64,000 nucleotides of DNA, from IMG/VR virus record IMGVR_UViG_3300047172_000080, positions 15,153-79,152 of that record; one strand, given 5' to 3'. This document shows positions 527 to 64,000 of this stretch, piece by piece; position 1 is the first letter of the stretch; each line of letters opens with the position of its first letter. The notes under the pieces were generated by a model that did no database searches, was not told the DNA's origin, and saw only the letters and a list, made by a program, of their open reading frames with translations. Made by a program: the position numbers and the translations under genes. The DNA is from a virus.

Positions 527-527
527 A

Positions 528-1758: not shown

Positions 1759-1766
1759 CTTACTCC

Positions 1767-2186: not shown

Positions 2187-2222
2187 TGTTTAAAAATATT
2201 TCTGAAGAAAATTTTCTATTTC

Positions 2223-2958: not shown

Positions 2959-2993
2959 AGGAGAACCATACCTCCTTCTAGAGGATTTTCAAA

Positions 2994-33197: not shown

Positions 33198-33398
33198 TTA
33201 TTTTAATCCTAGTTGCCTAACTACCTCATCAAAATTCTTATCTTCTCCTCTAGTAAGACGTATATAGCCATTCCTACTAGGTAAAAATTTAAAAAGTACC
33301 GCAGGTTCTCCGTCTTCAGTATCAATCAACATAGACTGTGCATCTTTTGTTGAAAAAAGAACAGGATTTTTAAAATCTCCTCCTATTACAACGTGCAT
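33198..33398 (-). CDS. hypothetical protein
   Basis: 66-aa ORF in the operon. Confidence 0.5.
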   Translation of the reverse strand: MHVVIGGDFKNPVLFSTKDAQSMLIDTEDGEPAVLFKFLPSRNGYIRLTRGEDKNFDEVVRQLGLK

Positions 33399-33613
33399 AA
33401 TTCGCTAGCTTGTTTATTAATGTTTATTAAATGACTAATAGTATCTAAATCTTCAACATCATAATCCAATTCATCATCAGAATATTTTTCTAAAGTTTCT
33501 TGTATATAAGGCGTATGGCAAGCATATTTCCACAAGGATAATAGATCAAAATCACTTAATCCATTATCCGTTGCGGATTTAATAAAACCTGCAATAAAGG
33601 CATCCTTATTCAT
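33386..33613 (-). CDS. small GFxKxA-leader family protein
   Basis: MNKDAFIAGFIKSATDNGLSDFDLLSLWKYA matches the leader of the head-module proteins. Confidence 0.6.
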   Translation of the reverse strand: MNKDAFIAGFIKSATDNGLSDFDLLSLWKYACHTPYIQETLEKYSDDELDYDVEDLDTISHLININKQASELCTL

Positions 33614-42795: not shown

Positions 42796-42950
42796 TTAAA
42801 GTTCCCCGGCCTAAAGGCACGGGGATTTAGCCGAGTCCTTCACCAACGCCAAATCGCCATGCAGAACGCACGATTCAGAGTTAATATCGACAGACCCGTT
42901 GCTTGTGCGGGCTTTAAGGCTCCGCGTCCCCGCAGCGTTGCACGCTATGG
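42796..42950 (-). ncRNA. probable TnpB omega/reRNA scaffold (5' end uncertain)
   Basis: Established location overlapping the tnpB 3' end and the right-end hairpin; guide would be the flank starting at 42795. Confidence 0.5.
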
Positions 42951-43992
42951 AGACAGACCGCGCCCGAATGTTTTTCGAGGCTTGAAGGTCGGCATCGTCT
43001 TTGTGGCCGCACTTCTGACAGCAGAAGCGCAAGCCTTTCCGGTTCGATGCCGAGACATGGCCGCAGGCGCTACACCCACGGCTTGTGTTGCGAGGGCTAA
43101 CCGCCTCCAATTCTATGCCGACAGCCGCAGCCTTATAGGCGATCTTGAATCGCATATCGGCATATGGCCAGCGATGGACTTTGGAACGGAGGTCTTTCCC
43201 CTTACTCAGCGAACTGTCTCGGATATTGCTGAGTTCTTCTACAACGATGCGCCTTGCTCCAACCTCAACCGCGTAGCTGACCAGTGCCTTACTTGCCGTG
43301 TGGAGCAAGTGCGCGGTTACGGCAGCCTCATGCCCGGACATCCTTCGCAGGAGCCTCCGGGCACTTCTGGTGCCAACCGACTGGACAGCGGCGCGGGTGC
43401 GCCGGATGCAAGAACGACGGTGATTCAACACCCCGCCGTGGAAGAAAAATGGTTTGGCGTTCACCGAGTTCGTGGCGACCAACATCCGTTTGATGCCGAA
43501 ATCGCAGCCAACGATACAACCTTCGGTCTTCGGCTCGGCGATCTCAACTTCGTGAGCCAAGCAGAGGAACCACTGTTTGCCAATTCGCTTGATTTTGGAA
43601 TCTTTCCATGCGCCTTCTGGCAGTTGACGAGAATCGCTGACAGTCAGGAGTTCACCCCAAAGTGTGATGCCTTTATTGGTGCGGTTGAAGTCCCGCTTCC
43701 ACACCGTCGGGATGACGGCACGGGAAAACTTCGCAAGCCTCCAACGCTTGTTCGCCTTGGCGGTCTTGTAGGTAGCGCAGACGGTTTTGCAGAGGGAGCA
43801 GGCAAGTTGGGAAGGCAGTCCCATTTCTCGGAGATTGGCATAGTGGGCTTTTGCCAGCCGATTCGAGTTCAATTCCTCAGTCTTGAAGGCAATCGCCGAA
43901 AGCCAGTTTGCGGCTTTCAGCCAAACAGTAAGCAGGCCGTCAGCTTTTGTGCTGCCGGAAATCTTGAGCTTGACTGTGTGGATTGCTTTCAC
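42811..43992 (-). CDS. tnpB: RNA-guided endonuclease TnpB
   Basis: RuvC GCDFG / VVEEL / DADLQASKNI motifs and CSACG...CQKCG zinc ribbon; probable GTG start at 43992. Confidence 0.92.
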   Translation of the reverse strand: MKAIHTVKLKISGSTKADGLLTVWLKAANWLSAIAFKTEELNSNRLAKAHYANLREMGLPSQLACSLCKTVCATYKTAKANKRWRLAKFSRAVIPTVWKRDFNRTNKGITLWGELLTVSDSRQLPEGAWKDSKIKRIGKQWFLCLAHEVEIAEPKTEGCIVGCDFGIKRMLVATNSVNAKPFFFHGGVLNHRRSCIRRTRAAVQSVGTRSARRLLRRMSGHEAAVTAHLLHTASKALVSYAVEVGARRIVVEELSNIRDSSLSKGKDLRSKVHRWPYADMRFKIAYKAAAVGIELEAVSPRNTSRGCSACGHVSASNRKGLRFCCQKCGHKDDADLQASKNIRARSVSIACNAAGTRSLKARTSNGSVDINSESCVLHGDLALVKDSAKSPCL

Positions 43993-44022
43993 TACATTGA
44001 AGACTACTACCAAGAAAAAACA

Positions 44023-44318: not shown

Positions 44319-45821
44319 TTAAGCTCTCCATACCCATCTCTTTTTACCACAATCCCAAATCTTGTACAATCCTCTTTGATTAGCCCATTGCTCTTCTGTT
44401 AAATTAATTGGGCAATTTACTCTATTTTTTCTTTGAGATTGTTTAGAAACTCTAATATGGTTTTTTAAATCAGCGTAATCATAATCTATATCCATTTCTT
44501 TCTCTAAAGTAAAACCTAATGACTTATATACGTGTCCTTGACTCCATCTATTATCACTCCAACTCCAAATTTCATTACATTTATACTGTTCTCGAAGAAA
44601 TTTAAATAATCTAGAAGCTCCCCCTACTACTGTATAGTTAGATTTAAAACATAATCTATCTAGCCAGATTTTAGTGTCTGTAATGTCAAAAGGATGCCTA
44701 CCAAAGCTCATTACTCCTATTAACTCATTATTATAAAATAGACCGGCAAAATACTTACCAAGAGAATTTGCTCCTTGGATATGATATAACTCAATAAATT
44801 TATTAGCTTCCTGAACTTCAATTTCTCGTACTTCGCATTTACGAGCATAAAGTCTATTTTCATTCTTATTTAAAACAGATCTTAAAAAACCTTTTACTTG
44901 GTCTTTTCTTTCTAACCATTCATCTTCAAAAATAGTAATTAATCTTACTCCTTTAGCTTCACATCCTAGTCTTTTATTGTTGCGACTAGTCTTATTTTTA
45001 TTGAATAAATTAGAATGCCATCTCAATCCATTATATTCTATACCTAAGTTTATGGATTCCTCATAAAAATCTATTTCATATCCTGATAATATTTTAAAAT
45101 CAGAATTAAAATTAAAACCAAAAGAATTAAGCCAATCCTGAATAATCGCTTCTTCTTTCCCATATCCACTAACCCATGCCGAACCATATGTAGCGAATCT
45201 AGTTGTTATTTTCTGCTCACGGATTATAGCTGAATCTTTAATAATACTATTTCTTTTTAAAATACCTTGTATATTTTCTCTAGAATAACCTATTTCATTT
45301 TTATGCTTACTAGCTATTTGGTCAGCTGTTAAATTAAGAACCAAATATTCGTATCTAATAACCTCTATATTTGTTTTAGATTCTTTATAAAGAATAAGCT
45401 CATTGGGCCTTTTTATACCTAAACTAGAAGCATGTTGTTTAACATTCGTGTATTTTGTATTATAAATTTGCGTTAACTCTTCTTTAGACTTAGTTAGATA
45501 GTTGTTTTCAAATTCCTTATCATCTCCAAATTCTGTTAACTTTCGTCTATCTACATCATATTTATCTAAAATTCTATACAACGATGTTTGAGATATATTA
45601 TATTTTAAGAGTACATCTCTATAAGATAGATTTTTAAAATCTTCTACAATTACTAACTCATTTACTTTCAACGCTTTTTTATTTAAACCTAATTTTGAAG
45701 CCTTTAATTTAATGCTATGCCAAAGTCTTCCAGGTAATAAATTACAAATATCTTCTTTAGTTAATTTACAATAGCTATTAACTAATATTTCTACTTCTTC
45801 GTTTGACCAAGTTTTACACAT
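44319..45821 (-). CDS. Hef-like putative homing endonuclease (HTH repeats, PD-(D/E)xK-like domain, GNAT-like C-terminus)
   Basis: EIDFY...GIEYNGLRWHS...LITIFEDEW; YARKC...HIQG...VVGGASRLF...SDNRWS.G..Y..LGF...IWDCG. Confidence 0.7.
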   Translation of the reverse strand: MCKTWSNEEVEILVNSYCKLTKEDICNLLPGRLWHSIKLKASKLGLNKKALKVNELVIVEDFKNLSYRDVLLKYNISQTSLYRILDKYDVDRRKLTEFGDDKEFENNYLTKSKEELTQIYNTKYTNVKQHASSLGIKRPNELILYKESKTNIEVIRYEYLVLNLTADQIASKHKNEIGYSRENIQGILKRNSIIKDSAIIREQKITTRFATYGSAWVSGYGKEEAIIQDWLNSFGFNFNSDFKILSGYEIDFYEESINLGIEYNGLRWHSNLFNKNKTSRNNKRLGCEAKGVRLITIFEDEWLERKDQVKGFLRSVLNKNENRLYARKCEVREIEVQEANKFIELYHIQGANSLGKYFAGLFYNNELIGVMSFGRHPFDITDTKIWLDRLCFKSNYTVVGGASRLFKFLREQYKCNEIWSWSDNRWSQGHVYKSLGFTLEKEMDIDYDYADLKNHIRVSKQSQRKNRVNCPINLTEEQWANQRGLYKIWDCGKKRWVWRA

Positions 45822-46002: not shown

Positions 46003-46965
46003 TTAACCATTAAAATCCCACAAGCATGCACCTTTAACATTACCAATTGATATACCCAACTCAAGGTATTGAAAGAAAGACAACCACCATGCCTTATTTT
46101 CCATGTACGCCGTTAACGGCTGTAGTCTGAAGTACTTCCCAAGGAACTCTTCAGAACTGAAGGCGTATATTTGACCATCTGGAACAAGTTGGTTCTTGAT
46201 AGTATAGATTGCTTTGACACCGTTAAGAGTCTTGCAAGGAACACCATTTTCGAACATTTGCTGAGATAGATCACCACCTGCTTCATCACGACCAAATTTG
46301 ATGAAGTCCTGAGCAGTAGAGGTATTCATGAGCATAATACCCTTTGAAGAACCACCATCAGGCTGCATAGGACCGAAGGGAACTTTAAGTCTAGTGATAG
46401 ACTTGAAGGCTTCAGCTAGGTTATCACGAGTAAGACCAGGGAACTGGATATACTGAGGTAAACCTAAGCCATTAAGTGGGTTAGGGGTATTGAGCGCGCC
46501 AATAACCGCGTTAATCTTATTCATGAATCGTGAATCTACTTCAGTACCTAAGTCTTTAGTAGAAATTTCAAGAAGGATCTGGCGAATATCATAATCGTAA
46601 GTACGAAGTTTGCTGATATCTTTCTTGAAGTTAGGAGTCATGGTACGAGCGAAGAAGACAGGATAACGAGTACCTTTGAATACGAAACCATCAGGAGTGT
46701 TACCGTAAGGGACAGTTACTGCAGGAGCAACGTCTGGTTCACGATCACACCACTTAACGATAACTTCAGGGTCTTGAGCCTTGTCGAGTTCGTCATTGGC
46801 AATATCGATAGGAGTGATTACTTTTTCAGCAAAGCTGTCTTCACGTAAGATATTACGTGTATAAGCCATAGCCGAAGCTTCTGCTTCTTTAACATTACCA
46901 TTTAATACCTGATCAATGAACTGATCATTGAAGGGTTTAATTTGTTCTTTAGAGAGTTTTTCCAT
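46003..46965 (-). CDS. major capsid protein (HK97 fold, putative)
   Basis: 320 aa; follows protease, scaffold and decoration genes; strong terminator; codon usage looks highly expressed. Confidence 0.75.
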   Translation of the reverse strand: MEKLSKEQIKPFNDQFIDQVLNGNVKEAEASAMAYTRNILREDSFAEKVITPIDIANDELDKAQDPEVIVKWCDREPDVAPAVTVPYGNTPDGFVFKGTRYPVFFARTMTPNFKKDISKLRTYDYDIRQILLEISTKDLGTEVDSRFMNKINAVIGALNTPNPLNGLGLPQYIQFPGLTRDNLAEAFKSITRLKVPFGPMQPDGGSSKGIMLMNTSTAQDFIKFGRDEAGGDLSQQMFENGVPCKTLNGVKAIYTIKNQLVPDGQIYAFSSEEFLGKYFRLQPLTAYMENKAWWLSFFQYLELGISIGNVKGACLWDFNG

Positions 46966-47660: not shown

Positions 47661-49058
47661 CTAAACGTCAACATTATTTATTAAATTATTTTCTACCCAA
47701 GTATATACAGCTTCAGCTGCTTCTTCATTATTTTTATCATTAACTAAGTATTCATGATTAGGAAGTAGGTTAACATTAAAGTTTTTCATTGTAGAAATAG
47801 TATGTAATTTATGAAAACCAAAACTACCTTTGTATGATTCAGATTCTACAGCAAATGTAGAAGCAAGTTCATAAGGAGCTATTTTAATTCCTTTATTAAT
47901 TAATTCTTGTTTTCTGCTTCTATTAAAATCTGAATCATTTTCTCGTAATAATATTTGGTCACTTGGATGACAAGCTTCCAATGTGGGGTCAAATTTTAAA
48001 TCCTTCACAGCTTTAAAAAAATTCTTACTATAAAAACAAAAACCAAGATTGCCTACTTGATTATTAGGCAACCAATTCCAAGGAGAACCAATTACATCAT
48101 ATTTAAAAAATTCATCAGTCCAAGCGTAAGGATTAACAATATACCCATCAGGATGAATTTGAAGTATATGTTCAGTAAAATGCTCCAAATAATTTGAAAA
48201 TTGAGTTAACCCCCAAATACACATATCTTGCCAATGCTCAAATTTAGGAATTTTTACAAATGTAAAATTATTCATACCTAAAGATGAAGGTGGTAATTCA
48301 TTACTAAAATAAACAACTTTATCTACATCTACCCGATTATAAGAATGTTTAAGTGCCTGCAAGGTATCAGTATGATTAATAGTAGCTACAGCATATAATG
48401 TAGTATTAGGCAATTTAGGTTTAACAGGGCTATCCTCTAGTAAAGCCAATTTTGTATAAAATCTAGGTATAGCGTCTTTTTCGAAACCGAGTTCATAAGA
48501 GTTATGAAGATTTATTGTTTCTTGATGATCGTGATAGTTATATCCTTCTTCTAACTTAATCATCTTGTTATAAATTTTAGATATAACCTGAACTTCATAA
48601 TTCTCTTTTTGAAGATAATAGTTAAGCATTGTTTGTTCAGCTAAACAGATATCTTCTTTCCTATGGCTCCATACTTTCTCAAACAATTGAAAATGCTCTG
48701 GTGAATACATATATAAGCCAGCATTCAAATATTTACTAGAATCGATGTCATGCATCCAAGACACATTTTGGACAAAATCTGTATCTGTTCTATCTAAACA
48801 TGCAGTGAAGGTTTGTTTTCCGTTATTAAATATTTCTAAAGGATTCCACTTTTTTAGGCAATAAATATCAGAATCAAAGTACAAATAAGAATCTGCTTTA
48901 AACTGTTTATGAATTAAACATTTGAGCCATACAGGAGAAATACCTTTCTCTTCAAGTGTATAAACATGACATTTTAAACCTGTCATTTGCTGCATTCTTA
49001 ATGCAGCATAATAAGCGTCCTTTTTATAATTACCTACACCTAAAGTAATTCCGATCAT
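47661..49058 (-). CDS. two-domain glycosyltransferase (GT8-like plus DUF5672-like)
   Basis: YFDSD, YLNAG, EQTMLN; then IHPDGYIVNP.AW.DEFF.YD.IGSPW...GNLGF. Confidence 0.75.
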   Translation of the reverse strand: MIGITLGVGNYKKDAYYAALRMQQMTGLKCHVYTLEEKGISPVWLKCLIHKQFKADSYLYFDSDIYCLKKWNPLEIFNNGKQTFTACLDRTDTDFVQNVSWMHDIDSSKYLNAGLYMYSPEHFQLFEKVWSHRKEDICLAEQTMLNYYLQKENYEVQVISKIYNKMIKLEEGYNYHDHQETINLHNSYELGFEKDAIPRFYTKLALLEDSPVKPKLPNTTLYAVATINHTDTLQALKHSYNRVDVDKVVYFSNELPPSSLGMNNFTFVKIPKFEHWQDMCIWGLTQFSNYLEHFTEHILQIHPDGYIVNPYAWTDEFFKYDVIGSPWNWLPNNQVGNLGFCFYSKNFFKAVKDLKFDPTLEACHPSDQILLRENDSDFNRSRKQELINKGIKIAPYELASTFAVESESYKGSFGFHKLHTISTMKNFNVNLLPNHEYLVNDKNNEEAAEAVYTWVENNLINNVDV

Positions 49059-49527: not shown

Positions 49528-49681
49528 TATGCTTATGTTGTTCTAAGTCTACTAACCCATCTATAAACTCCATTACTTTAACTTTCTCTTCTTTAGGAAG
49601 TAAAAGTAAGGAGTCTATAGCTTCTTGTTTAATACCCTTATTTTGTGATTTCAACTTCTTTAGTTTTAAGCTTTGATTCAA
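49496..49681 (-). CDS. small hypothetical protein (start uncertain)
   Basis: Fills the gap between head genes. Confidence 0.3.
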   Translation of the reverse strand: MNQSLKLKKLKSQNKGIKQEAIDSLLLLPKEEKVKVMEFIDGLVDLEQHKHNEQGITSKSS

Positions 49682-50612
49682 GCTGTGTTAATACTAGAGA
49701 AGCAATCTTTTCAGCATGTTCAGCATCTGCTTTTTCTGCAGCTACTTTAGCTAATTGCGCTTCTTTTGCTTTTTCTTCAGCAGTCTTTTCTGTAGTTATT
49801 TTAGAAATCTCCTGCTCAAGAGTAGCAACTTTTTCAAGTAATACATTATCAGAAGCACTCTTATAAAGATTGTCAAAATAAGCTGCACCAGCTTCTTCAG
49901 CTACTTTTTCATTAATTACAGGTTCAGAAGTTACGGTAGGTGAAGCTACTTTGATTTCAGAAGCCATTTGAGTAATTAGTTCATCAAAGTCTCTACGACC
50001 AGCTTCTTTTAAAAACGCCTTTTCAGAAGCTGACTTTTCGATATACCCACTTGATTTTAATAGATCTACAATAAGTTCAGCACCTAGATTATAAGCAGCA
50101 ATCTTCTGAGCTAATTTTTCATTTACTACAGCAGCAATTTTAGCATCACTTACGACTTTACCTGCTTCTTCTTTAGAAGGTTCCTGTTTAAATTCATTTT
50201 CATTCTTTTCAGGCTTAACTTCGTTCTTTGCAACAGTATTAGTATCAGCAGGAACTGATTCCTGTTTGGTATCGGCACCAGGAGTACCAACAACAGTTTC
50301 TTGGCCTTCTGAATATTTGGTAATTAAAGAATGAATTTCTTCTGAAAGTTTCTTTAGATCACCAGCAGATTTAACACTGTTATCACTTACGACTTTACCT
50401 GCTTCTTCTTTAGAAGGTTCCTGTTTAAATTCGTTAGTATTATTTTCTGGTTTTACTTCGTTCTTATTAATTGTATTCGTAGCAGTAGGAATAGACTCAG
50501 GTTTTGTGTCTGCGCCGGGAGTACCTACAACAGATTCTTTACCACTTGCTTGTTTACGAACAAGATTTTGAATTTGATCGACTACTGATGCATGTTTGTT
50601 TAATTTTGCCAT
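49638..50612 (-). CDS. putative scaffolding protein with duplicated ~52-aa segment
   Basis: K/E/A-rich with many K-x-A sites; VVGTPGADTK...EFKQEPSKEEAGKVVSD occurs twice. Confidence 0.6.
   Translation of the reverse strand: MAKLNKHASVVDQIQNLVRKQASGKESVVGTPGADTKPESIPTATNTINKNEVKPENNTNEFKQEPSKEEAGKVVSDNSVKSAGDLKKLSEEIHSLITKYSEGQETVVGTPGADTKQESVPADTNTVAKNEVKPEKNENEFKQEPSKEEAGKVVSDAKIAAVVNEKLAQKIAAYNLGAELIVDLLKSSGYIEKSASEKAFLKEAGRRDFDELITQMASEIKVASPTVTSEPVINEKVAEEAGAAYFDNLYKSASDNVLLEKVATLEQEISKITTEKTAEEKAKEAQLAKVAAEKADAEHAEKIASLVLTQLESKLKTKEVEITK
50145..50432. repeat. 51-bp exact direct repeat within the scaffold-like gene
   Basis: 50145-50195 is identical to 50382-50432. Confidence 0.9.
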
Positions 50613-50647: not shown

Positions 50648-51382
50648 TTATTTAGTGATTGTAAACTTTTCCTTTAACAATCTATCTACACCAGCTTCTT
50701 TTAAAATAGCTAGAGTTTGATCGTATGTTAAATTATCAGCAGATGCCTTCTCCCCAATTCCTTGGAAATAAGCCAAGGTATCTTCATCTACTTCAGAGGC
50801 TATCTTGGTAACTTGAGCTGTCTTTTGGAAAGCTACTTTACAAGTCTCAATTGAATTATTTAATGCTTCTCCATAGAAATTAACAGCATCTTCGATTGAA
50901 TAGCCTTTTGAAGAAGCACTTTTTAAGAAACCACTAATATATTCAGAAGTCTTAGCTATAGCTAAATTCTGTTGATGCTCAGGAGCCATTTCTCCCATTC
51001 CTGAGTCTTGTTGCCCACCAGCTTGTAAATGCTGAGCTACTAGAGCAGCAACCTGTTCTATTTGTTCGTCAGAAAGAGGCATTCCCTGTCCTTGACTAGG
51101 ATCTCCACCCATAGAAGGATCTTGGACAGAAGGAGCCTGATGAGGACGCCCATGATGAGCATGAGAAGGATGAGCGGGGTGTTCAGGAGGAAGAGCCGAA
51201 GGATCTGTACCTTGACTAGGATCTCCACCTTGAGACGATAAATGCGCCATTAAAGCTTCAAGTTGAGCAGGATCAACATCTTCGCCAGATGCTTGTTTAA
51301 TTACTTGAGCAACTTCTTGAACAGAGGCTCCTTGTTCCTTAGCGGCAGTTAAAAAATTTATAAAGGCTTCTTTTTCAATCAT
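50648..51382 (-). CDS. head-module protein with three leader-like helical repeats and a Q/P/H-rich linker
   Basis: AFINFLTAAKEQG, YISGFLKSASSKG, YFQGIGEKASADN. Confidence 0.6.
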   Translation of the reverse strand: MIEKEAFINFLTAAKEQGASVQEVAQVIKQASGEDVDPAQLEALMAHLSSQGGDPSQGTDPSALPPEHPAHPSHAHHGRPHQAPSVQDPSMGGDPSQGQGMPLSDEQIEQVAALVAQHLQAGGQQDSGMGEMAPEHQQNLAIAKTSEYISGFLKSASSKGYSIEDAVNFYGEALNNSIETCKVAFQKTAQVTKIASEVDEDTLAYFQGIGEKASADNLTYDQTLAILKEAGVDRLLKEKFTITK

Positions 51383-51450: not shown

Positions 51451-54063
51451 TTATCTTCTATTTACTACAAGAGTATTAATCATGAAATCATCGGTTAACT
51501 TACCTTGATCATCTAAGTAACTAAGAGCAGAAAGTTGATAATTAGCATATTTAACAGCTAATTGCTCTTCAAATAAAGATTTTGATTTAACACTAGATTC
51601 CTTTTTTAATTCTACTTTAGGTCTAGTTACTATAGTAATTCTCATGATTCTATTCTTAACAGGTTCGTCAAATAAAGAATGATCACCAGTAAGAGACTTA
51701 ACTAATTCCATAATTTCAGAAGGAACTCTTGAACTTGAACTAGGTTCAAAATCTTCATTATGTAATTCCTCATCATTATCTTTTAATTTTTCATGTATAG
51801 AAGGAAGATGAGTTTTCATTCCTTCTAAATGATCATCGTTCATTTTATTATCAAAAATATATTTAAAAAACTCCTCTGGTGTAAATATGATTCCTTTATC
51901 TGCAAGAGCTTTGAGTAATTGATGATGATCAAATTTACGTAATTCGCTAATAGTTTTATCTGATATTTCAGATGAGTAATTAATTTTAGGAAGTTCATTC
52001 TTAATGAACTTATCTCTGGAATTTTCAACTTTACCAGAAGCTATCATATCAATATGTTTTTCTAACTTAGCTAGTTTATTAACAATTGATCTTTTATTAG
52101 ATGCAAACTTAGAAAGAGTTAAAGAAGGAGGAAGATATATTTCTGCAGCTTGTTTTAAATTATTAGTATAACGATCTTGAATATTATTGCTATCTGAAGC
52201 ATTTTTTTCCAAATTATTTAATGAATAAGCTACTCTATCAGCAGGACGCCTTACTTTACTAATTTCAAAGAACTCAGGGTCTGGATTTAACATTCCTACC
52301 ATTTTACCTTCTTTAGTAATCTCACCTAATTGAGAAGGGATATGCTTACATCTTTTTTTAGCATCAGGAGCTTTATGTCCACAAATAGAACAAACATCGT
52401 AAGGTACTTGGCAATTTGAAACCCCTATAAAATTAGCAACAAAAGAATGATCCCCTGGAATAGTTAAATCATATACTTTTTCTTGAAGGTGAATTTTTTC
52501 AATTTTATAAATTTGATGATAAACACATGACCCTTCAATGTAGCATCTCTGTTTTTTAATAGAATAAGGCAGAGATATTTTGTCTTTTCCTTGATACTTA
52601 AGTCCAGTTAAATTTCTGGTCATTAACCGCTCAGAATATCCATATTCTTTAGGTATTTTATACAAACTCAAATATTTAATCTGGTCCGAATTAAATTTAA
52701 TTGTGTAAGAGGTGCATTTTTTACTTTTACACTTACCAAAGACAGCAATGATATTATTTCTCCACGCTAACTGGCATAATTGCCATATCAAGATTTTAGA
52801 AATAGATGAGCCGATTACAATATGGTGATTTTTATGCCAAGAACCATCTCCTTCTAAATACTTCTCCAATACAATTTTTTGAGTCGTTAAAGGCCATTCC
52901 ATTACCTCTTGAGAAAGCTTTTTAGATCTAGCATACTTACCACCATCTCTTACAAGCTTGTTAAGTAAGTCTATATTTCTACATCTTATTACACGTTTAG
53001 TATTCTCGGGTCTTTCATACTCACTAATTTGTCTCTCTTCTATACCTAAAGCTAATAAAGCTTTTTTTAATTCATTACAATATTCAACTTCTTTAATGTT
53101 AAAAGTCCAATCTATATTCCAATAGTATTTTGAATATTTCTTAGGCGTATAAGCATTTCCTTCTGCTAAATAATAACCTAGTACAATTGCGTAATTTAAA
53201 TCAATTGTAGTTGTCAAAACATAATTAGAAAAAGGAGTAGAAACAAAGTCTCCAACTCTTAAATCTTTAGCAAGTCTATAACCTTCTGCAGCTTTCGAAA
53301 AATTTCTATAAGCTTCCTGATGTGCTATATCTTTGATTTGATGTAAATGGGATCGTAATTGACTAAAACTTTTTCCACATGCAGGACATTTACAATTTTT
53401 TTGATATTTAGGTCTTACCCAAATAGGATGATCATTTGTTGATATTGCTTCATCAGGCAAACCATAGCACTTTAAAAGTATACCTTCATCATCATAAGCT
53501 CGACTCATTGTATGAGAAACAGTTCCTAAATTACCTTGTCTAGTAATAACAGTATCTCCTACAGCAATATCTTTAATCATTCTCTCAGTATTATTAGATA
53601 ATAACACCGGAGTATTTCCTGGAAAACAAGCCATACTAAAAGCTTGTTGTTTACCTGTAGCTATCTTATGGAGTGCTTCTTCATTCTTTGGATTCTTTTC
53701 ATCTAATCCAATCATTAATTCAACACGCTTCATTTTCTTATGATAATCAGAAGCATGAATCTTACCATATACGGGGTCAGTTATTTTATTCTTGTGATTC
53801 TCATGTACTCTACCTGATTTAACAAAAGTATGATGACATCTATCTAAATCATCTTCTAACCAATAATCTCCATTTCTATTATGCCCTGTTGATTCACAAG
53901 CACTAAGAGCTAATAAGTGAACTGGAACTTGATCTTTCCCAACCTTAACATTTTTAAATCTTTCACTACCTGCACGTTTATGTAGTTGTTTCCAATCTGT
54001 GATAATCGCCACAGGTTCAACATCTGTTTTAAAATCGTCTGTAGTACTAAATTTAACTAGCAT
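51451..54063 (-). CDS. putative prohead/capsid maturation protease containing an intein
   Basis: Extein NRNGD...H.NH...FSMA|CQVPYDVCSICG...CKHI...FFEISKV..PAD; sits upstream of scaffold and capsid genes. Confidence 0.65.
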   Translation of the reverse strand: MLVKFSTTDDFKTDVEPVAIITDWKQLHKRAGSERFKNVKVGKDQVPVHLLALSACESTGHNRNGDYWLEDDLDRCHHTFVKSGRVHENHKNKITDPVYGKIHASDYHKKMKRVELMIGLDEKNPKNEEALHKIATGKQQAFSMACFPGNTPVLLSNNTERMIKDIAVGDTVITRQGNLGTVSHTMSRAYDDEGILLKCYGLPDEAISTNDHPIWVRPKYQKNCKCPACGKSFSQLRSHLHQIKDIAHQEAYRNFSKAAEGYRLAKDLRVGDFVSTPFSNYVLTTTIDLNYAIVLGYYLAEGNAYTPKKYSKYYWNIDWTFNIKEVEYCNELKKALLALGIEERQISEYERPENTKRVIRCRNIDLLNKLVRDGGKYARSKKLSQEVMEWPLTTQKIVLEKYLEGDGSWHKNHHIVIGSSISKILIWQLCQLAWRNNIIAVFGKCKSKKCTSYTIKFNSDQIKYLSLYKIPKEYGYSERLMTRNLTGLKYQGKDKISLPYSIKKQRCYIEGSCVYHQIYKIEKIHLQEKVYDLTIPGDHSFVANFIGVSNCQVPYDVCSICGHKAPDAKKRCKHIPSQLGEITKEGKMVGMLNPDPEFFEISKVRRPADRVAYSLNNLEKNASDSNNIQDRYTNNLKQAAEIYLPPSLTLSKFASNKRSIVNKLAKLEKHIDMIASGKVENSRDKFIKNELPKINYSSEISDKTISELRKFDHHQLLKALADKGIIFTPEEFFKYIFDNKMNDDHLEGMKTHLPSIHEKLKDNDEELHNEDFEPSSSSRVPSEIMELVKSLTGDHSLFDEPVKNRIMRITIVTRPKVELKKESSVKSKSLFEEQLAVKYANYQLSALSYLDDQGKLTDDFMINTLVVNRR
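52414..53628 (-). mobile_element. intein (405 aa) with LAGLIDADG homing endonuclease
   Basis: Starts CFPGNTPV; TNDHP block B; LGYYLAEG and YLEGDG motifs; ends VYDLTIPGDHSFVANFIGVSN before Cys+1. Confidence 0.92.
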
Positions 54064-54069: not shown

Positions 54070-54510
54070 TTACTGCATTGGCATTGGCTGAGCTTCAGGT
54101 TGTTGAGGTTGAGAGCTATGAGACATAGCTTTACCTGCTCCGTATAATCCAGCTGCACCTAAACCACCTACTGCTCCAACTGTTCCTACACCTTTAAGTA
54201 AATCCATTAAATGCTTATCTCTAGCTTGCATATGCCCTATTTGTTCATCACCAATAGCCAGTGGATTAGACCATGGGGCACTTTTAGCATGTTCATGCAT
54301 TCCTTTATAATTATCAGGTATATGAGTAACGTCATTATAACGATTCATTCCAAACTCTTTAGCTTTACCTAAACCACTCATAAAAAGAGCTTTGAGTTCT
54401 TCTAGATTAGCTGGAAAAGCTTGTTTAACTAAACTAGTAATTTCATCTCTTGTAAAACCATATTGTTGAGCACGTTTTACAAAACCATTTACCATTGATT
54501 GTTTGTTCAT
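54070..54510 (-). CDS. GFxKxA-leader cargo protein with Gly-zipper
   Basis: MNKQSMVNGFVKRAQQYGFTRDEITSLVKQA, then GVGTVGAVGGLGAAGLYGAG. Confidence 0.7.
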   Translation of the reverse strand: MNKQSMVNGFVKRAQQYGFTRDEITSLVKQAFPANLEELKALFMSGLGKAKEFGMNRYNDVTHIPDNYKGMHEHAKSAPWSNPLAIGDEQIGHMQARDKHLMDLLKGVGTVGAVGGLGAAGLYGAGKAMSHSSQPQQPEAQPMPMQ

Positions 54511-54517
54511 AATTTTA
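54415..54517. repeat. 103-bp direct repeat copy A (leader-encoding)
   Basis: Matches 58017-58119 with one mismatch (54492/58094). Confidence 0.95.
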
Positions 54518-54938
54518 TTTCTATGTTATCCATCAAGTATCCAATACCCCCACCTAGAGCCATACCTCCTAATCCACTACCTAACGCTAAAGCACCATGA
54601 TGCATTAATGCACGAGAAGACATGTTTGTAGCTGATAAGGCATCCATGTGAAGTATACCAGGAGTAACTCCTAGCATTAATCCTAAATTTGTATCTTTAT
54701 AAGGATTAGGTTTAGATTCTGTTTTTTTTAAATTTGCTTCCTTTGCATTCATATTTATTTGTTGGTTATTATTTCTATTTTTAAATTTATCATACAAAAA
54801 TATAGAGGCTGCAGTACTTGGAACTGCTTTAGTATAAGCATTTATATATTTTGAACCATGATTTTTAAAATGTTTATATAATGAAGGTAAACCTGTAGCT
54901 TCTAAATATTTAACTCCTGAGCCATTCATATTATTCAA
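54507..54938 (-). CDS. Gly-zipper protein
   Basis: GALALGSGLGGMALGGGIGYL. Confidence 0.6.
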   Translation of the reverse strand: MNNMNGSGVKYLEATGLPSLYKHFKNHGSKYINAYTKAVPSTAASIFLYDKFKNRNNNQQINMNAKEANLKKTESKPNPYKDTNLGLMLGVTPGILHMDALSATNMSSRALMHHGALALGSGLGGMALGGGIGYLMDNIEIKL

Positions 54939-55851
54939 ATTTCCCTTCTGTCATTCTACGATTTTTCATCCATTCCTGGACTTTAGGTTTTCCATAAATT
55001 TTCTTCTGAGCATAACTCATCAAAGGAGATAAGGCCATTCCAGCTAGCCCTGCAGCAGCAGCACCTCCAGCTATTCTAGGATTAATATGTGACGCAAAGT
55101 TCTTTACCTTACCTAAAGGATCAACAGAACGATAAGCTGCTTTACGTGCAATATCTCCAGAACTTAAATCATTTCTTTTTCCTAGTTCTTGTACAATATT
55201 TTTAAAATGATGCCCTTGTGGTTGTTCTCCAGGTTTTAAAGAAGATTTAGGAAAGTTAGAACTTAATGTTCTAATTAATTGTGCATCGTTAGCTCCTTCT
55301 AATTTTGTACGAGAAGGTTCTAAACTATGATAGAAATCACTATATAAACCTACTCCATCCCCTTTAGAATTAAAATGTTTTTTAGTATCCCCAGTAGGAT
55401 TTTTAAACTTATCTAATACAGGAACTTCATCTACAGATTCAGGAAATACTCTAGAAAGATCAGGGCGTTCTAAAAAGTCTTTTTCTGATAAACCTTTAGA
55501 CCCATCTTTTTTACCATAACTAGCTTTATTTTTGGTTATCTCTCTTTGAAGAAGATGATCCTTTAACAAGCTATGCCCTACTTGACCACCAATAACTCCA
55601 GTAGCTAGTACAGGAGCTTTATTTAATAAATCATGAATAGTCGCTTGAATAGGATGTTTGTCATAAAAGGTTTCTACTTCTTTATTTTTTTTACCAATAA
55701 GATATTGAGTAGAATCTAAACCTTTTAAACTATCATCTAGTAGTTGATTAGAATCACTTTTTTCAAAGCTATCTAAATCAGGTCGTCTCTGATCTAGATA
55801 ATCAGAAATCATTCTGTGTAAGTGTTCAGGATTGTTTAAGTCTATTGGCAT
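54931..55851 (-). CDS. basic protein with Gly/Ala hydrophobic helices
   Basis: VLATGVIGG; IAGGAAAAGLAGMAL. Confidence 0.6.
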   Translation of the reverse strand: MPIDLNNPEHLHRMISDYLDQRRPDLDSFEKSDSNQLLDDSLKGLDSTQYLIGKKNKEVETFYDKHPIQATIHDLLNKAPVLATGVIGGQVGHSLLKDHLLQREITKNKASYGKKDGSKGLSEKDFLERPDLSRVFPESVDEVPVLDKFKNPTGDTKKHFNSKGDGVGLYSDFYHSLEPSRTKLEGANDAQLIRTLSSNFPKSSLKPGEQPQGHHFKNIVQELGKRNDLSSGDIARKAAYRSVDPLGKVKNFASHINPRIAGGAAAAGLAGMALSPLMSYAQKKIYGKPKVQEWMKNRRMTEGKFE

Positions 55852-55862
55852 AAAATTATAAA

Positions 55863-56132
55863 TTATCCGCGAGCGGCTGTTGTAGCAATAGGATCAGATA
55901 CTGTAGTGGCAGACTCAGGAATACCATGTGTGTTACTAAACACCTTACCCATTCCAAGATTAACCTTAGGTGAAGCAGGCATAGGTGGAGGAGGTTGCAT
56001 AGGGGGGGTCATAGGAGCCATTGTGGGAACCATTTGATTCGATATTTTATACAAAAGTGCTTCTGCTTCTTGGGTAGATAATCCTCGTTGCTTAGCTCTT
56101 TTTATAAAACCATTCTTAAAAAAGTTATTCAT
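55863..56132 (-). CDS. GFxKxA-leader protein with Pro-rich tail
   Basis: MNNFFKNGFIKRAKQRGLSTQEAEALLYKIS. Confidence 0.65.
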   Translation of the reverse strand: MNNFFKNGFIKRAKQRGLSTQEAEALLYKISNQMVPTMAPMTPPMQPPPPMPASPKVNLGMGKVFSNTHGIPESATTVSDPIATTAARG

Positions 56133-56133
56133 A

Positions 56134-56730
56134 TTACAATGCTCTATATGTACCTAATTGATTATTAGCAAATTGACGTTCTTTAGAAAGAGTATCAAAG
56201 GTTGTTTGCATATTGCCAGGGTGTGTTAACTTCTTTAATGAGGTAACATCTTGTTTAGTTTTATTAAAGTGTTTTACACCTCCTGCTAAAGCACCTATAC
56301 CTAACCCTACAGCTCGGCTCCAACCAGGAAGATGTTTAACTAAACTTGTATACTTTGGATTTACTAAAGAAGATGCAGCTTCTCCTGCGAGATGCCCAGC
56401 ACCAAAACCAGCAACGCCACCTAAGATGCCATGACCTACTCCTGATTTAACTCCTTCAATATCAGGATTACGATCATAATATTTATCTCTAAGTTTTAAA
56501 ATATCTTGATTGTATTCACGAGCATATGGGTGAGTATCATCTACATTATAAGCAGGACTTTTTCCTCTTTCAGCCAACATATCTTTAATGTTCTGAAAAT
56601 CCTCAGGTGAGTAATCTGAATTAGCAACTTTACTGACTTCATGATTATACATCGCTTCAGATTCTTCTGTAGTATAACCTTTATCAAAAGCTGACTTCAT
56701 GAAACCATATTTAAAATATTGAGTAAGCAT
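56134..56730 (-). CDS. GFxKxA-leader cargo protein with two Gly-zippers
   Basis: MLTQYFKYGFMKSAFDKGYTTEE...KVA; GILGGVAGFGAG; AVGLGIGALAGG. Confidence 0.65.
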   Translation of the reverse strand: MLTQYFKYGFMKSAFDKGYTTEESEAMYNHEVSKVANSDYSPEDFQNIKDMLAERGKSPAYNVDDTHPYAREYNQDILKLRDKYYDRNPDIEGVKSGVGHGILGGVAGFGAGHLAGEAASSLVNPKYTSLVKHLPGWSRAVGLGIGALAGGVKHFNKTKQDVTSLKKLTHPGNMQTTFDTLSKERQFANNQLGTYRAL

Positions 56731-56736
56731 ATAATT

Positions 56737-57594
56737 TTAACCTTGTACTTGAGGATCTCCTTGATAAGCCGCTTGAGGAGTTGGTTGAGGAGTTGGTTGA
56801 GGAGTTGGTTGAGAAGCATTAGCTATCTGATTTATAAAAGGAGTAGCTACAAACGGTGCGGCTGTTCCACCGATTGTACCAAGTAACCCAGGCTTTTTCG
56901 TAGATGTTTGACCTATAAAATTTATAAATTTATCCGTTAAACTTCTAGATTTAACTCCATTCAATGCTGCTTTTCTCGCAGCCATTGCTCCCAATGCTTC
57001 TGCACCTTCGTAACCACCCCATCCAGCCAATCCTTGACCTAAGAGTTCAATTAACAACGGTAAAATAGCTTCTTTAGTAAAACCTGCATTCTTCATCAAT
57101 GTAGGTAGTGCTTCTTTAGTAACTCCTTTACTCATTGCTTGTTTAGCAAATCCTTCTGTATAAGAATCAACTGCTGATTTTTTATGCATTGAATGTACAC
57201 CCATTCCTAAACCTACAGCACCTACACCAAGAGAACCAACTCCTTTAGTAATCTCCACGTTGTTATCATGCTTCTCTTTTCTCCATGCATCCCAATCAAA
57301 CGTAGGATCATAACTATACGGTTCTTTATCTGCTAATGCCTTAACTTTAGCTATATTGTCAGGAAGGTGGTTAACTGGGTTTACAATATGTTGTTTAAAT
57401 AAAGCGGAGAGAGAAGCTTTCTTTTCAGGTAAACCAGTATGTTTTGTTTTAGTGAAATGCTTTAGTGATGCAGAAGAAATACCTTTAGCCGCTTCTTGAG
57501 CTTTAGGAGATAATTTTTTCATATAGGTAGGATGTTGCTTTGCATTTTCTAAAGCGTACATAAATCTGGATTGAGATTTAGAAGAACTAGGCAT
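56737..57594 (-). CDS. multi-module protein: DUF3008-like N-terminus, internal GFxKxA leader, Gly-zippers, PTPQ repeats
   Basis: MPSSSKSQSRFM...FTKTKHTGLPEKK; YTEGFAKQAMSKG; 12-bp tandem repeat at 56773-56813. Confidence 0.65.
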   Translation of the reverse strand: MPSSSKSQSRFMYALENAKQHPTYMKKLSPKAQEAAKGISSASLKHFTKTKHTGLPEKKASLSALFKQHIVNPVNHLPDNIAKVKALADKEPYSYDPTFDWDAWRKEKHDNNVEITKGVGSLGVGAVGLGMGVHSMHKKSAVDSYTEGFAKQAMSKGVTKEALPTLMKNAGFTKEAILPLLIELLGQGLAGWGGYEGAEALGAMAARKAALNGVKSRSLTDKFINFIGQTSTKKPGLLGTIGGTAAPFVATPFINQIANASQPTPQPTPQPTPQAAYQGDPQVQG

Positions 57595-57599
57595 TATAC

Positions 57600-58112
57600 T
57601 TAAATATTTGTATTTGTATTAAACTGACCAGCTGTTGATTGAGGTGCGTTCTTTTTATCCAGATGCTGCTTTAACAAACTATAAAGTCCTAAAGCTCCTG
57701 CTCCACCTAAAGCATATTGTCCTATAGGACCAGTAGCCATAGTATTAAAATGATCATGAATTCCTCCTGGAGAAGGGCCATTTAATACACTTTCTTGATA
57801 AGCTCTTTCGTGTTCATCATCAATCATACCCAATCCTGGTTGGTCATAGTTATTATGAGGTTCAAAATCATGCTGCTCAAACCTCTGTGGATCAGGTAAT
57901 GAAATACCTTTACGCACATTTTTAATATGTTGAGCCATAGCCATTTGGTCAAATCCATGACGTTCTGGGACTTTCATAAAAGAACGCCCTAAAGCTTTTG
58001 CCACTAGGTCACCTCTAAAAGCTTGTTTAACTAAACTAGTAATTTCATCTCTTGTAAAACCATATTGTTGAGCACGTTTTACAAAACCATTTATCATTGA
58101 TTGTTTGTTCAT
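57600..58112 (-). CDS. GFxKxA-leader cargo protein with Gly-zipper (true start probably 58112)
   Basis: MNKQSMINGFVKRAQQYGFTRDEITSLVKQA; ALGGAGALGLYSLL. Confidence 0.7.
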   Translation of the reverse strand: MNKQSMINGFVKRAQQYGFTRDEITSLVKQAFRGDLVAKALGRSFMKVPERHGFDQMAMAQHIKNVRKGISLPDPQRFEQHDFEPHNNYDQPGLGMIDDEHERAYQESVLNGPSPGGIHDHFNTMATGPIGQYALGGAGALGLYSLLKQHLDKKNAPQSTAGQFNTNTNI

Positions 58113-58119
58113 AATTTTA
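58017..58119. repeat. 103-bp direct repeat copy B
   Basis: Matches 54415-54517 with one mismatch. Confidence 0.95.
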
Positions 58120-58516: not shown

Positions 58517-59776
58517 TTATTGATTAAGAGCCATTAGTTTTTGTTTAAGTAAAGATAAATCTAATTCGCTTATTTGTCCTGCAGCATGTGGTGCAAGAGC
58601 TTGTCCGCTAACCATTTGACGTAAGATTGCTTTCAATACTTCTTTCTGTAAAGCAACCTGAGGAGCAATTTTAACTACTTGTTCAAAAGCAGCTATAACA
58701 TCTGAATGATTTTCTTTTTTTAGAATTGGATCACGTAAAAGTAAATCTTGAAGGATAGCTTGTCTTTCAAAGTTATCCATGACTGAGTTACCTGAAACAG
58801 AGGGTTTTTTAGGAGCTTCCCCTTTAGCTTTTTCAGCTACATTTTTAAAAATCTCATCTAAAAAACCAGCATACTTATCCTGCCCTTCATTCGTTGAAGA
58901 AAGAGTTAGTTCTGTAGGTTTTTTTTTTAACTCTTCAGCTTGTTTATAAATCTCAGCAATATAATCTTTTTCAAATTTGACATTATATTCTGCATCTTCT
59001 GCTTCTTTTTCAGAAGCTAACATTTCATCACTATATTTATAGAACTTTTCCAGTTGATTTAACTCAGGGCAGTTATCAAAGAATTGATAACCTTTATCGT
59101 GGATACCACGTTCTTCAGTTAACCTAGCTTGCTTATAAAGAAGATCCAACATTGGAGTAATTTCTTCTCCAAATTTAGAAATAGCTTGAGATTCAAATTC
59201 TTCAAAACTAGTACGATGCCCTGCATCTTTTCTAAAACTGTCCGCTAAATTAAAAAAACAAGCTTCCATGTTATTCTTTGCTTCGATTTTTGCAATCTTG
59301 GCGTTCATGGCTTCTTTTTCTAACTTAGCAATATAATGTGCTGATTTTTCTAAAACCGCTTTATCAGATAACTGATTAGGTTGATTTTTAGGAGTATCCG
59401 CAATTTTAAGATAAGCTTCCTTATGTAAGGGGCTTGTAAAGATCTTATCTAAATCAGGAATAGGATTAAACAATTCGACAGGAGGAAATTGTTCAGAATT
59501 AAAATGATTAGCTGTCTTTTCATTTTCATTATACAACTCTTTAATAACACCTTGAATATCTGCTAAAGGAAATTCAGCAGCTTTATCACTAGCTGTTTTA
59601 TAATGATTATAATAAAGCGCAGTATTTAAACCTTCGCCAGTACGTTGAATAAAATCATATTTAAGGTCATAATACTCAGCTGCCTTTTTTAAGGCTTCAG
59701 TAGGATTAGTGCCTTTATTAATTTCATTAACTGAATATTGAAGGGCCTCTTTAATGAGGAGATTTGGATTTTCCAT
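58517..59776 (-). CDS. K-x-A-rich head-associated protein
   Basis: Many KEA/KTA/KSA/KQA/KYA sites; C-terminal LLLRDPIL...AP.VA motif. Confidence 0.55.
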   Translation of the reverse strand: MENPNLLIKEALQYSVNEINKGTNPTEALKKAAEYYDLKYDFIQRTGEGLNTALYYNHYKTASDKAAEFPLADIQGVIKELYNENEKTANHFNSEQFPPVELFNPIPDLDKIFTSPLHKEAYLKIADTPKNQPNQLSDKAVLEKSAHYIAKLEKEAMNAKIAKIEAKNNMEACFFNLADSFRKDAGHRTSFEEFESQAISKFGEEITPMLDLLYKQARLTEERGIHDKGYQFFDNCPELNQLEKFYKYSDEMLASEKEAEDAEYNVKFEKDYIAEIYKQAEELKKKPTELTLSSTNEGQDKYAGFLDEIFKNVAEKAKGEAPKKPSVSGNSVMDNFERQAILQDLLLRDPILKKENHSDVIAAFEQVVKIAPQVALQKEVLKAILRQMVSGQALAPHAAGQISELDLSLLKQKLMALNQ

Positions 59777-62081: not shown

Positions 62082-64000
62082 TTAAGAATCAAGTACATCC
62101 TGTTGGGACATGTTAATTGTTAGTTCAGGAGATTTTCTCTTTAAGAATATGATAACATCTCCTAGATTACGAAAAACGTCAGTAAGCAGTTCTACAAACT
62201 TTGGCATGTCATCACGACCATACATTTGTGTAAACTTATCTGTTTCCCAGTGAGTAAGGAATAATAATCTACCAAGCTTATCTAAAGCCCCTAATAAAGC
62301 TGGAGTATATTCAGTAATCTTATCCTCAGGATTAACATACTTAGCTAAAGTAGCGATAGTATGAGTATCGAAGATTTCTTTCTGCCCACTTTCAGCTAAT
62401 TGGGTAGCTCTTTCAATTTCTCCATTAATCCCATCAAGATCAGGCTTAACTCCTAAACCCATTCTGGTAGGATCTTTATCGTAAGAATTATCAATTGGAG
62501 CCATTTTCTCAGAACCAACTCCTGAATAAGTGGGTGTACCAAATTCATCAGCATAAGGAACTTCTTCATCAGGTTGAGCAGGGTAAGCACCTAAATCTGC
62601 AACTTTAAGATAGCCTTTGATTTTATAAGTAGGTTTAATACCATCAATAACTTCTGAAGCTTGTTTCCAATCCATTCCTAAATCTTTAACCATGGCTATT
62701 TTAGCCGTGCGACTATTCTTGAAATGTTTTTTAAATTCTTTAACACTAACAAAATATTCACTACCTGTATTATGTACAGTCATAGGATATACTTGTCTAT
62801 CGCTAAGAATACCTGTAATAGAAGAAACTGGTCCTGGTTTACCCTGATCGTATTTTACTAATTCTTCCACTGCCCAAGGTTTTCTAACAATGATACTTAA
62901 TAGTTTAAAACCAGCGGGGATATAAATATTATTATTTTTATATGTAAATCTACCCCCTGATGATTTAGTCATAGTAATATAAAAATGACTTTCCTTATGA
63001 GGAGGAGTAAAGAAATTACCAGCTGGTAAGTCATGAATACTACCGGGGCGGTCTGAAAGAACTTTACCGCGTCTACTCAATTCTTCTATTTCATAAGCTT
63101 TAACAGGGGATACTTTTAATTTACGTAATCCTGAAGAATCTTTAAAATTAGCTTCTACTTTAAAAGGAACAGATGCTTTTAATTTTTCATTAATTAATAC
63201 ATAAGTATGATCAAATGAAGGTTTAACACTCGCAGCATCTTCGAACTGTTTATAAATATCAGAAAGATCAGCAATTCTAATTTGATCTTTAGTGAACAAT
63301 TTTGAATTATCAACTATGTAAGCTTGCCCTTTACTTGATTCTGAATCTAAGTCTACAACAATAGCATCATTTGTAGCATAAGGTAAATCTAACTGATTAG
63401 GTCTTACTAATACTAAACCATATCTAATCTCCCCAGTTTTCGTAATATACGGGTAGAAGCCAGACTCACTAGGATTAGTAAAACTTTGAGTAACATTAAC
63501 AGGAGCAAATTTAGATTTCTTACTATCGGGACGTTTATCAATTACTAAAAAGCCTTTAGTAGCTAATTCTTCTTTTTCTGCTGGAGCTAAACTCTTTGTA
63601 TCAAAAGATTCACCATCATTTAAAATTCTAACTTCTCCAGAATCGCGATATTCTTTTCCAGGACGTTCAGCTGGAGTAATAGCTTCCGCAATCTTTTCAA
63701 TTGGATAATAACGAAGAAGTGCTTCACAAAAGTCTGCATTGCTCTCAATAGCATACTTAAGTAACGACTTAGTTTCATTATTCTGATCTTTTACATAATC
63801 TAAACAAGAAGCATAAGTATATTTTCCTGTACGAGGAGGAGCAACCATATTACGCATATCCATTGCGGGCATATCCGCTTGAATAGATTGTCTGGTTTCA
63901 TTAGATGGTTGACCTGCATCCTGTGCGTCATCTTTTAAAAACAAATTAGCAAACTCTTCATTAAGAGGATAAAATTGTTCATGATCCTTAGAATAAAGTA
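62082..64000 (-). CDS. large conserved-looking phage protein, 5' part outside the window
   Basis: Frame stays open from 63944 to the window edge (LYSKDHEQFYPLNEEFANLFLKD...). Confidence 0.65.
   Translation of the reverse strand, partial: LYSKDHEQFYPLNEEFANLFLKDDAQDAGQPSNETRQSIQADMPAMDMRNMVAPPRTGKYTYASCLDYVKDQNNETKSLLKYAIESNADFCEALLRYYPIEKIAEAITPAERPGKEYRDSGEVRILNDGESFDTKSLAPAEKEELATKGFLVIDKRPDSKKSKFAPVNVTQSFTNPSESGFYPYITKTGEIRYGLVLVRPNQLDLPYATNDAIVVDLDSESSKGQAYIVDNSKLFTKDQIRIADLSDIYKQFEDAASVKPSFDHTYVLINEKLKASVPFKVEANFKDSSGLRKLKVSPVKAYEIEELSRRGKVLSDRPGSIHDLPAGNFFTPPHKESHFYITMTKSSGGRFTYKNNNIYIPAGFKLLSIIVRKPWAVEELVKYDQGKPGPVSSITGILSDRQVYPMTVHNTGSEYFVSVKEFKKHFKNSRTAKIAMVKDLGMDWKQASEVIDGIKPTYKIKGYLKVADLGAYPAQPDEEVPYADEFGTPTYSGVGSEKMAPIDNSYDKDPTRMGLGVKPDLDGINGEIERATQLAESGQKEIFDTHTIATLAKYVNPEDKITEYTPALLGALDKLGRLLFLTHWETDKFTQMYGRDDMPKFVELLTDVFRNLGDVIIFLKRKSPELTINMSQQDVLDS

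Follow-up and report, generated by a model that had tools for sequence, protein, structure and literature searches.

A recurrent GFxKxA tag beside the head genes of a large phage and its possible role as a head-loading module

Scaffold proteins of the P22 type carry a C-terminal helix-turn-helix domain that binds the coat and has been used to load foreign cargo into P22 particles, and the herpesvirus scaffold polyprotein is cut by assemblin at (V/L)-x-Ala-Ser sites, after the Ala. In phage T4, the internal proteins IPI-III and Alt bear a capsid-targeting sequence (CTS) that is cut off by the prohead protease gp21; the internal proteins are basic, the scaffolds acidic, and the core proteins gp22, gp67 and gp68 are degraded (PMC9958956). 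Ejection or internal proteins are also processed by the prohead protease in the giant phages SPN3US and phiKZ (PMC7411985, PMC10052503). Here we analyse a 64,000-nucleotide stretch, the window, which comprises bases 15153-79152 of the 79,152-bp virus record IMGVR_UViG_3300047172_000080. Near its head genes lies an array of small proteins that share a tag of about 32 residues with the signature GFxKxA, and the same tag recurs in an acidic protein encoded at the scaffold position. With a probability of roughly 55%, we read this tag as a docking module for loading proteins into the head, in the manner of the T4 CTS.

Scanning the six-frame translation of the whole record with the strict pattern [FYM]..GF.K[RSQ]A...G[LFYV][ST] gave exactly seven matches, against 1.5e-5 expected and none in 200 shuffles. 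Five of them start at residue 5-6 of the minus-strand genes 54070-54510, 55863-56132, 56134-56730, 57600-58112 and 33386-33613, all of which an earlier note on this DNA had listed as headed by the motif. The remaining two are internal: 56737-57594 has one at residue 145, and 50648-51382, the scaffold-position protein that we call the hub, has the other at residue 148. The same note had seen an internal motif in the former and about three copies in the latter, and both are present. A hidden Markov model (HMM) built from the five N-terminal copies and searched across the genome recovered the internal hub copy independently (domain E 4e-4), found the copy in 56737-57594 weakly (E 0.08-0.27) and detected nothing further. 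For the N-terminal hub copy (residues 2-36), the score is 45.9 bits when the profile contains that copy, but only 2.2 bits with the independent five-copy model; the third hub copy is backed by the family alignment and a predicted hairpin at residues 200-239. The word 'leader', used when the motif was first noticed, suits the mostly N-terminal copies; with internal and C-terminal copies as well, the tag is not strictly a leader but a portable domain.

The sequences that follow the leader had been described as unrelated. This holds at the BLAST level for the leader-stripped tails, except for a weak match between 54070-54510 and 56737-57594 (E 4e-5), and it is further qualified by Gly/Ala-rich, glycine-zipper-like hydrophobic segments that are common to most array members, tagged or not. 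The leaders of 54070-54510 and 57600-58112 match in 29 of 31 residues and are held in a direct repeat of 116 nt (54402-54517 and 58004-58119, 95% identical), which spans the leader codons plus 7 nt upstream and stops where the tails start; the leader alone was therefore recently copied between different tails. A signal peptide was considered and rejected, as the leader is without a hydrophobic core, and so was a simple paralogue family, given the unrelated tails and the duplication of the leader alone.

Searches with Pfam, PHROGs and NCBIfam of the array proteins, the hub and their neighbours found no family that covers the tag and gave only sub-threshold hints to MerR-DNA-bind, sigma-70 region 1.1, holin and tape measure, and a word-based homologue search with the leader region returned the genome's own proteins only. 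The first two hints (E 0.07-0.08), together with the internal and C-terminal placement of some modules, would suit an ordinary paralogous family that has kept its N-terminal domain for some separate biochemical activity, such as the binding of nucleic acid through a small helix-turn-helix, with no addressing or cleavage. We hold this to be very improbable: the hints lie far below the cut-offs, a two-helix hairpin of 30 residues is smaller than DNA-binding helix-turn-helix domains, the 116-nt repeat points to transfer of the leader alone, and the 55 unrelated tail groups of the wider family, described below, indicate domain shuffling rather than divergence of one gene.

The hub (50648-51382, minus strand) is an acidic protein of 244 residues encoded directly after the protease. 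Its three helical-hairpin modules occupy residues 2-36, 144-178 and about 199-239; the linkers are disordered, and a conserved helix lies at the centre. Its AlphaFold2 (AF2) model, based on 22 homologues, has a mean predicted local distance difference test score (pLDDT) of 74 and contains hairpins at 4-16/21-32, 146-158/163-197 and 200-215/220-239, of which the first reaches a pLDDT of about 90; the linker 52-104 is disordered, and no significant fold match was found for the model. The tag is thus predicted to be a folded helix-turn-helix, or hairpin, module of about 32 residues. The hub probably belongs to the scaffolding core, and the proposal of a modular tag shared with a scaffold-like protein is borne out by the unrelated tails and the three hub copies.

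How widespread is the tag, and how diverse are the proteins attached to it? The earlier note had called for a survey of relatives with a leader HMM. A 36-position tag profile, searched against 1.84 billion representatives of 50% identity clusters, retrieved 312 protein clusters at E<=1e-3. The best 150 of these, from which all copy-number, tail and charge figures derive, comprise 89 proteins of 75-400 residues with a single N-terminal copy, 51 with two or three copies, seven with one internal or C-terminal copy, and three spurious matches. The tails of the 89 N-terminally tagged proteins form 55 unrelated BLAST groups, so that diversity is found in what the tag is attached to; 75 of these tails are net positive, with a median charge of +5, and the multi-copy proteins are mostly acidic, which agrees with the charges of internal proteins and scaffolds in T4. 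Pfam matches in the tails are few (DUF6321, Gly-zipper, an acylphosphatase-like domain and a weak ATP-grasp). A pattern scan of IMG/VR yielded 15 loci, in most of which 3-8 tagged genes stand side by side in one orientation, and among 185,579 prokaryote genomes the tag was found on one 2.5-kb contig of a metagenome-assembled genome only. Among cultured phages, neither the region nor the portal-like protein nor a typical tagged protein found a counterpart by megablast or tblastn, and the nearest cultured relatives examined, Salmonella phage Arash and Vibrio phage D69, are without the tag. No phage paper was found in the searched literature with the tag motif strings; the tag, the hub and the candidate cleavage code discussed below are not described in the libraries and literature searched.

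The neighbours of the array had been taken for a head protease and a capsid gene, and both assignments stand. We accept the intein-interrupted gene at 51451-54063 (minus strand) as that of a prohead protease because of the fold matches of its model, an invariant His101/Ser152 pair and the gene order. Family searches gave no match beyond its intein, as did a sequence search of the PDB, and a first scan of IMG/VR with the C-extein found nothing. The syntenic IMG/VR relative L004, however, encodes an intein-less orthologue of 479 residues, whose homologues in metagenomes number more than 461 and are without exception annotated as 'hypothetical'. The AF2 model of the protease, computed from 29 homologues, has a mean pLDDT of 64, with 65-85 in the N-terminal domain. 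VIA-align ranks T4 gp21 first (5jbl_A, Z 8.2, root-mean-square deviation 3.8, 141 of 165 residues, model residues 16-210), followed by the proteases of varicella-zoster virus (Z 6.2) and human cytomegalovirus (Z 4.4), and BFVD gave 26 matches at E<=1e-3, annotated prohead and capsid-maturation proteases among them; Foldseek against the PDB found nothing, with the pseudorabies protease only at E 2.2. His101 and Ser152, the candidate catalytic residues, are invariant in the 29 homologues. At the level of the fold, and with its conserved His and Ser, the protein would belong with the gp21/assemblin proteases (MEROPS S77/S21-like), and a helical extension follows at its C terminus. The intein, of about 405 residues with LAGLIDADG-like motifs, lies at about 52414-53628, two residues after the invariant Ser (junctions FSMA/C ... 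SN/C); relative G003 has an insert of about 358 residues at the same site.

Downstream, the gene order is protease, hub, scaffold-like protein and major capsid protein (MCP). The scaffold-like gene (49638-50612, minus strand) encodes an acidic protein rich in Lys-x-Ala (K-x-A), with 16 such motifs against 5.0 expected, which is a candidate for the main scaffold or core. Within it, a stretch of about 50 residues is duplicated in tandem (...VVGTPGADTK..E..P..TNT..KNEVKPE.N.NEFKQEPSKEEAGKVVSD...), and a helical tail rich in Lys, Ala and Glu comes after the duplication. The MCP (46003-46965, minus strand; 320 residues) has the HK97 fold without a delta domain and a conserved K-x-A at residues 26-28; its atlas features stand at 0.98, its TM-scores to 'phage major capsid protein' clusters at 0.84-0.85, and it shares 28-30% identity with the Arash MCP and with its unannotated counterpart in three Vibrio phages. 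The gene at 62082-63944 is called portal-like on the basis of size, position, conservation and a weak match to an Arash virion protein; the atlas gave no usable match for it. The tail sheath (33619-36711) is recognised by its PHROG (E 1.5e-10), and the tube gene is assigned by position and size only.

The motif K-x-A may link the protease to its substrates. In the head region it occurs 89 times against 40.5 expected, and elsewhere 81 times against 64.3; among the strongest cases are 58517-59776 (17 against 4.7), the hub (7 against 1.7) and 33386-33613 (4 against 0.3). Of the 17 sites in 58517-59776, 11 are kept in the L004 orthologue at an overall identity of 42%, where by our own estimate about 5 of 17 would be expected from the separate conservation of K and A. 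The tag itself has two such sites: in N-terminal copies, K13 is conserved to 99% and A15 to 100% (K13-R-A15), and K30 and A32 to about 80%, whereas the internal copies are relaxed, with K13 at 61% and K30 at 50%. Furthermore, ...EKKA forms the junction between a conserved N-domain and the tag in several relatives, and the protease family consensus has a conserved L-K-L-A-S where the protease domain ends. Such a pattern would be expected of a cleavage code, of which L/I-x-E in T4 is an example, and herpes assemblins prefer Ala at P1. The case for K-x-A as a cleavage code of the head protease is circumstantial. The strongest K-x-A excess of the genome belongs to a protein of 342 residues encoded at 2994-4022 (minus strand; 15 against 2.4 expected, z 8.8), whose orthologue in relative L014 is directly followed by a tagged gene.

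We favour a role of the tag in head loading because it is repeated in a conserved acidic protein at the scaffold position and attached to many unrelated, small basic proteins, because a gp21-fold protease occurs together with core-like proteins saturated with a conserved short motif, and because a distant cultured relative, Salmonella phage Arash, packs 116 proteins into its virions (PMC10585845). What we infer for the binding partner, encapsidation, cleavage and ejection of the tagged proteins can be put as follows. The tagged proteins would join the core as it assembles, through contacts between modules or through a partner common to the hub and its clients, for which the inner capsid face and the main scaffold are candidates, and the clients would be enclosed as the HK97-fold shell forms. 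Digestion of the core by the protease would follow, perhaps with trimming of the tag at its two K-x-A sites, and the tails would stay in the head with the DNA, possibly for ejection. A more elaborate version, which we offer only tentatively, is a core of hub and clients in which an acidic, disordered hub with three folded hairpins serves dozens of exchangeable, basic one-copy clients, the payload is rewired by recombination of the 100-nt tag, and a gp21-fold protease with herpes-like K-x-A specificity dismantles the hub and frees the clients. If true, nature would have in such a core an evolvable way of loading proteins that differs in mechanism from the T4 CTS and is widespread among large phages not yet cultured.

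Several results weigh against a head-loading function. The hub model is without confident packing between its modules (predicted TM-score 0.40), so that module-to-module contact stays hypothetical, the conservation of K-x-A may simply come from membership in a helix, and a tblastn search with one typical tagged member (P0074) found no match at E<=1 in 50,697 phage records, which should include T4-like phages. Furthermore, the main arrays of the four near-complete relatives lie about 50-120 kb from the protease; in L001 and L005, the two of about 200 kb whose flanks were annotated, they are directly upstream of genes for collagen-like tail fibres; and a conserved tagged acidic gene lies between sheath and tube in every relative examined, at the place of 33386-33613 in the window (minus strand; 75 residues, the module followed by a very acidic tail). 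Together with a tagged gene of L014 in a region syntenic with window positions 1-4000, this is the picture to be expected if the module served to attach proteins to some other virion part or its assembly machinery, be it tail fibres, baseplate, neck or an assembly chaperone, rather than to the head, with the hub as an adaptor that happens to sit in the head module. We consider this rather unlikely. The hub is always found at the scaffold position: it directly follows the protease, with multiple tag copies, in this genome and in G001-G005, and in G007, where the protease position was not searched, it lies within the same head module. Each relative has one or two tagged genes inside its head module, between the portal-like and capsid genes and usually just before the latter, and the tails are small, basic and of low complexity, without receptor-binding or fibre-like domains. 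The genes of T4 head-internal proteins are likewise scattered outside the head module, so that gene position is weak evidence.

The adjacency of array and protease, which had been presented as part of the system, is found in this genome; in the near-complete relatives the main arrays are distant from the protease, and adjacency is therefore specific to the present genome and does not define the system. Set against Arash, the array of the window looks inserted between the gp220 orthologue and the protease. Arash itself (L016, OQ632216, 137.9-156.5 kb) keeps the portal-like gp218, gp220, the protease gp222 and the MCP gp226, and all but one of the annotated proteins between gp218 and gp226 have been detected in virions. 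Being tag-free, it could serve as a comparison system.

The composition of the tails also counts against head loading. In the window, the tails are near neutral rather than basic, and their glycine-zipper-like segments would suit membrane proteins too. Such segments are found in most array members of the window and in 29 of the 89 family tails, one of which matches Gly-zipper_YMGG, and variable arrays of small genes are typical of accessory regions. The tagged genes could accordingly encode small host-directed or membrane proteins outside the virion, with functions in takeover, exclusion or lysis control; the hairpin would then serve oligomerisation or partner binding in the cytoplasm, with the Gly/Ala-rich segments as membrane anchors. 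This appears improbable to us, however, as the module is repeated in a soluble, acidic and conserved scaffold-position protein, the arrays are co-oriented with the structural (late) genes, only 15 of the 89 tails reach even a modest hydrophobicity threshold, and the K-x-A enrichment ties the tagged proteins to head proteins.

Of the known systems, T4 offers the most extensive parallel to a tag for head loading. Here too, mostly small and basic proteins that are unrelated elsewhere share a conserved N-terminal element, the scaffold and capsid genes are accompanied by that of a gp21-fold protease, core proteins are rich in a short motif that may be the cleavage code, and the loci are variable. 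The analogy with T4 internal proteins, raised when the tag was first described, stands in these respects and does not extend to sequence homology with the CTS. Moreover, the tag comprises about 32 residues in a predicted hairpin, where the T4 CTS has about 10, it is repeated in a core protein and can be internal or C-terminal, and the candidate cut motif is Lys-x-Ala rather than Leu/Ile-x-Glu. Like the P22 scaffold, the hub is a scaffold-position protein that ends in a helix-loop-helix of about 30 residues in which basic residues are conserved, and a cargo fused to such an element would be directed to the procapsid; in contrast to P22, the fusions appear to be natural and on many genes and the module occurs three times in the hub, and we claim no homology and regard capsid binding as hypothetical. 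The herpes assemblins resemble our protease in the fold superfamily, the long helical C-terminal extension, the L-K-L-A-S at the domain end and the candidate P1 Ala, although the virus is a phage, its protease matches T4 gp21 better in structure and the cleavage site is a candidate only.

The combination of a large myophage, numerous candidate head-internal proteins and a protease of the gp21 type also recalls SPN3US and phiKZ, but their propeptides are cut at a short motif and no sequence relation was found; to our knowledge, their internal proteins share no folded tag. Encapsulins, the second analogy proposed for the tag, resemble the present proposal in their short address, which brings cargo of various kinds into a shell of the HK97 fold. 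However, their cargo peptides are short, extended and C-terminal and bind a defined pocket of the shell, whereas the tag is mainly N-terminal and a helical hairpin, and the present virus is a tailed phage with scaffold and protease, its sheath recognised by sequence and its tube and portal-like genes by position and size. By these features the tag does not belong with the encapsulin peptides.

The concept of loading is known from the T4 CTS and from P22 scaffold fusions; the tag itself differs. Programmable protein delivery already exists as a concept for the T4 CTS (PMC9958956), and its extension to the leader system, as once envisaged for this locus, is speculation. Even in T4, the selection and enclosure of scaffolding-core proteins have been called 'mysterious' (PMC9958956). 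The candidate address described here, a folded domain shared by a core protein and its presumed clients, leads to a concrete binding hypothesis, with another module, the scaffold or the capsid interior as partner. Naming the family of 312 clusters would annotate many 'hypothetical' phage proteins and expose a pool of functionally uncharacterised proteins that are probably delivered by virions, and a K-x-A code of the protease, if true, would be a useful annotation rule for the clade.

The array proper is encoded entirely on the minus strand. Its first gene, 57600-58112 (170 residues), has a sensible start at the ATG at 58112, a leader at residues 1-31 that ends in K-Q-A, and a tail of a widespread 'RGD/A..A..L' subfamily with a Gly-rich C-terminal segment. 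The next, 56737-57594 (285 residues), carries the module internally, at residues 145-175, after a conserved, phrog_28725-like N-domain that terminates in PEKKA, and has Gly/Ala-rich segments. It is followed by 56134-56730 (198 residues), whose leader ends in K-V-A and whose tail has two glycine-zipper-like segments, and by 55863-56132 (89 residues), with a Pro/Met-rich tail. Two members are untagged: 54931-55851 (306 residues) has a C-terminal Ala/Gly hydrophobic segment and a weak relation to part of a 757-residue protein at the same place in L004, and 54507-54938 (143 residues) has glycine-zipper-like segments. The last gene, 54070-54510 (146 residues), has a tail akin to tagged proteins in L006, L013 and L014. 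No recognisable Shine-Dalgarno sequences were seen in the array (54070-58112), where starts lie mostly about 1-12 nt past the upstream stop (for example TAAAATT-ATG) or genes overlap the preceding one, a pattern that suggests translational coupling or a host with weak use of Shine-Dalgarno sequences.

The source record, with a G+C content of about 33% and almost all genes on the minus strand, is probably a genome fragment, since the relatives that share its head genes measure 184-204 kb and are rated 94-100% complete; a smaller relative of 95 kb is rated 49% complete. Within the head module, 47661-49058 (minus strand) encodes a glycosyltransferase-like protein (DUF5672 E 3.6e-8, weak Glyco_transf_8), in whose place L004 carries two tagged genes. 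The structural region also contains a TnpB/IS605 OrfB-like gene (42811-44013, minus strand), with a Cas12f1-like TNB domain at E 2.5e-18 and a PHROG transposase match at E 3.5e-34; it adjoins an AAA ATPase gene (40850-42199), and the G+C content at 40-44 kb of the window is 40%, against about 33% elsewhere. Shortly after the capsid gene, in the transcribed direction, 44319-45821 (minus strand) encodes a homing-endonuclease/HNH-like protein of 500 residues with a Mom-like domain (PHROG 3339 E 5e-80; Pfam Mom E 1.7e-8).

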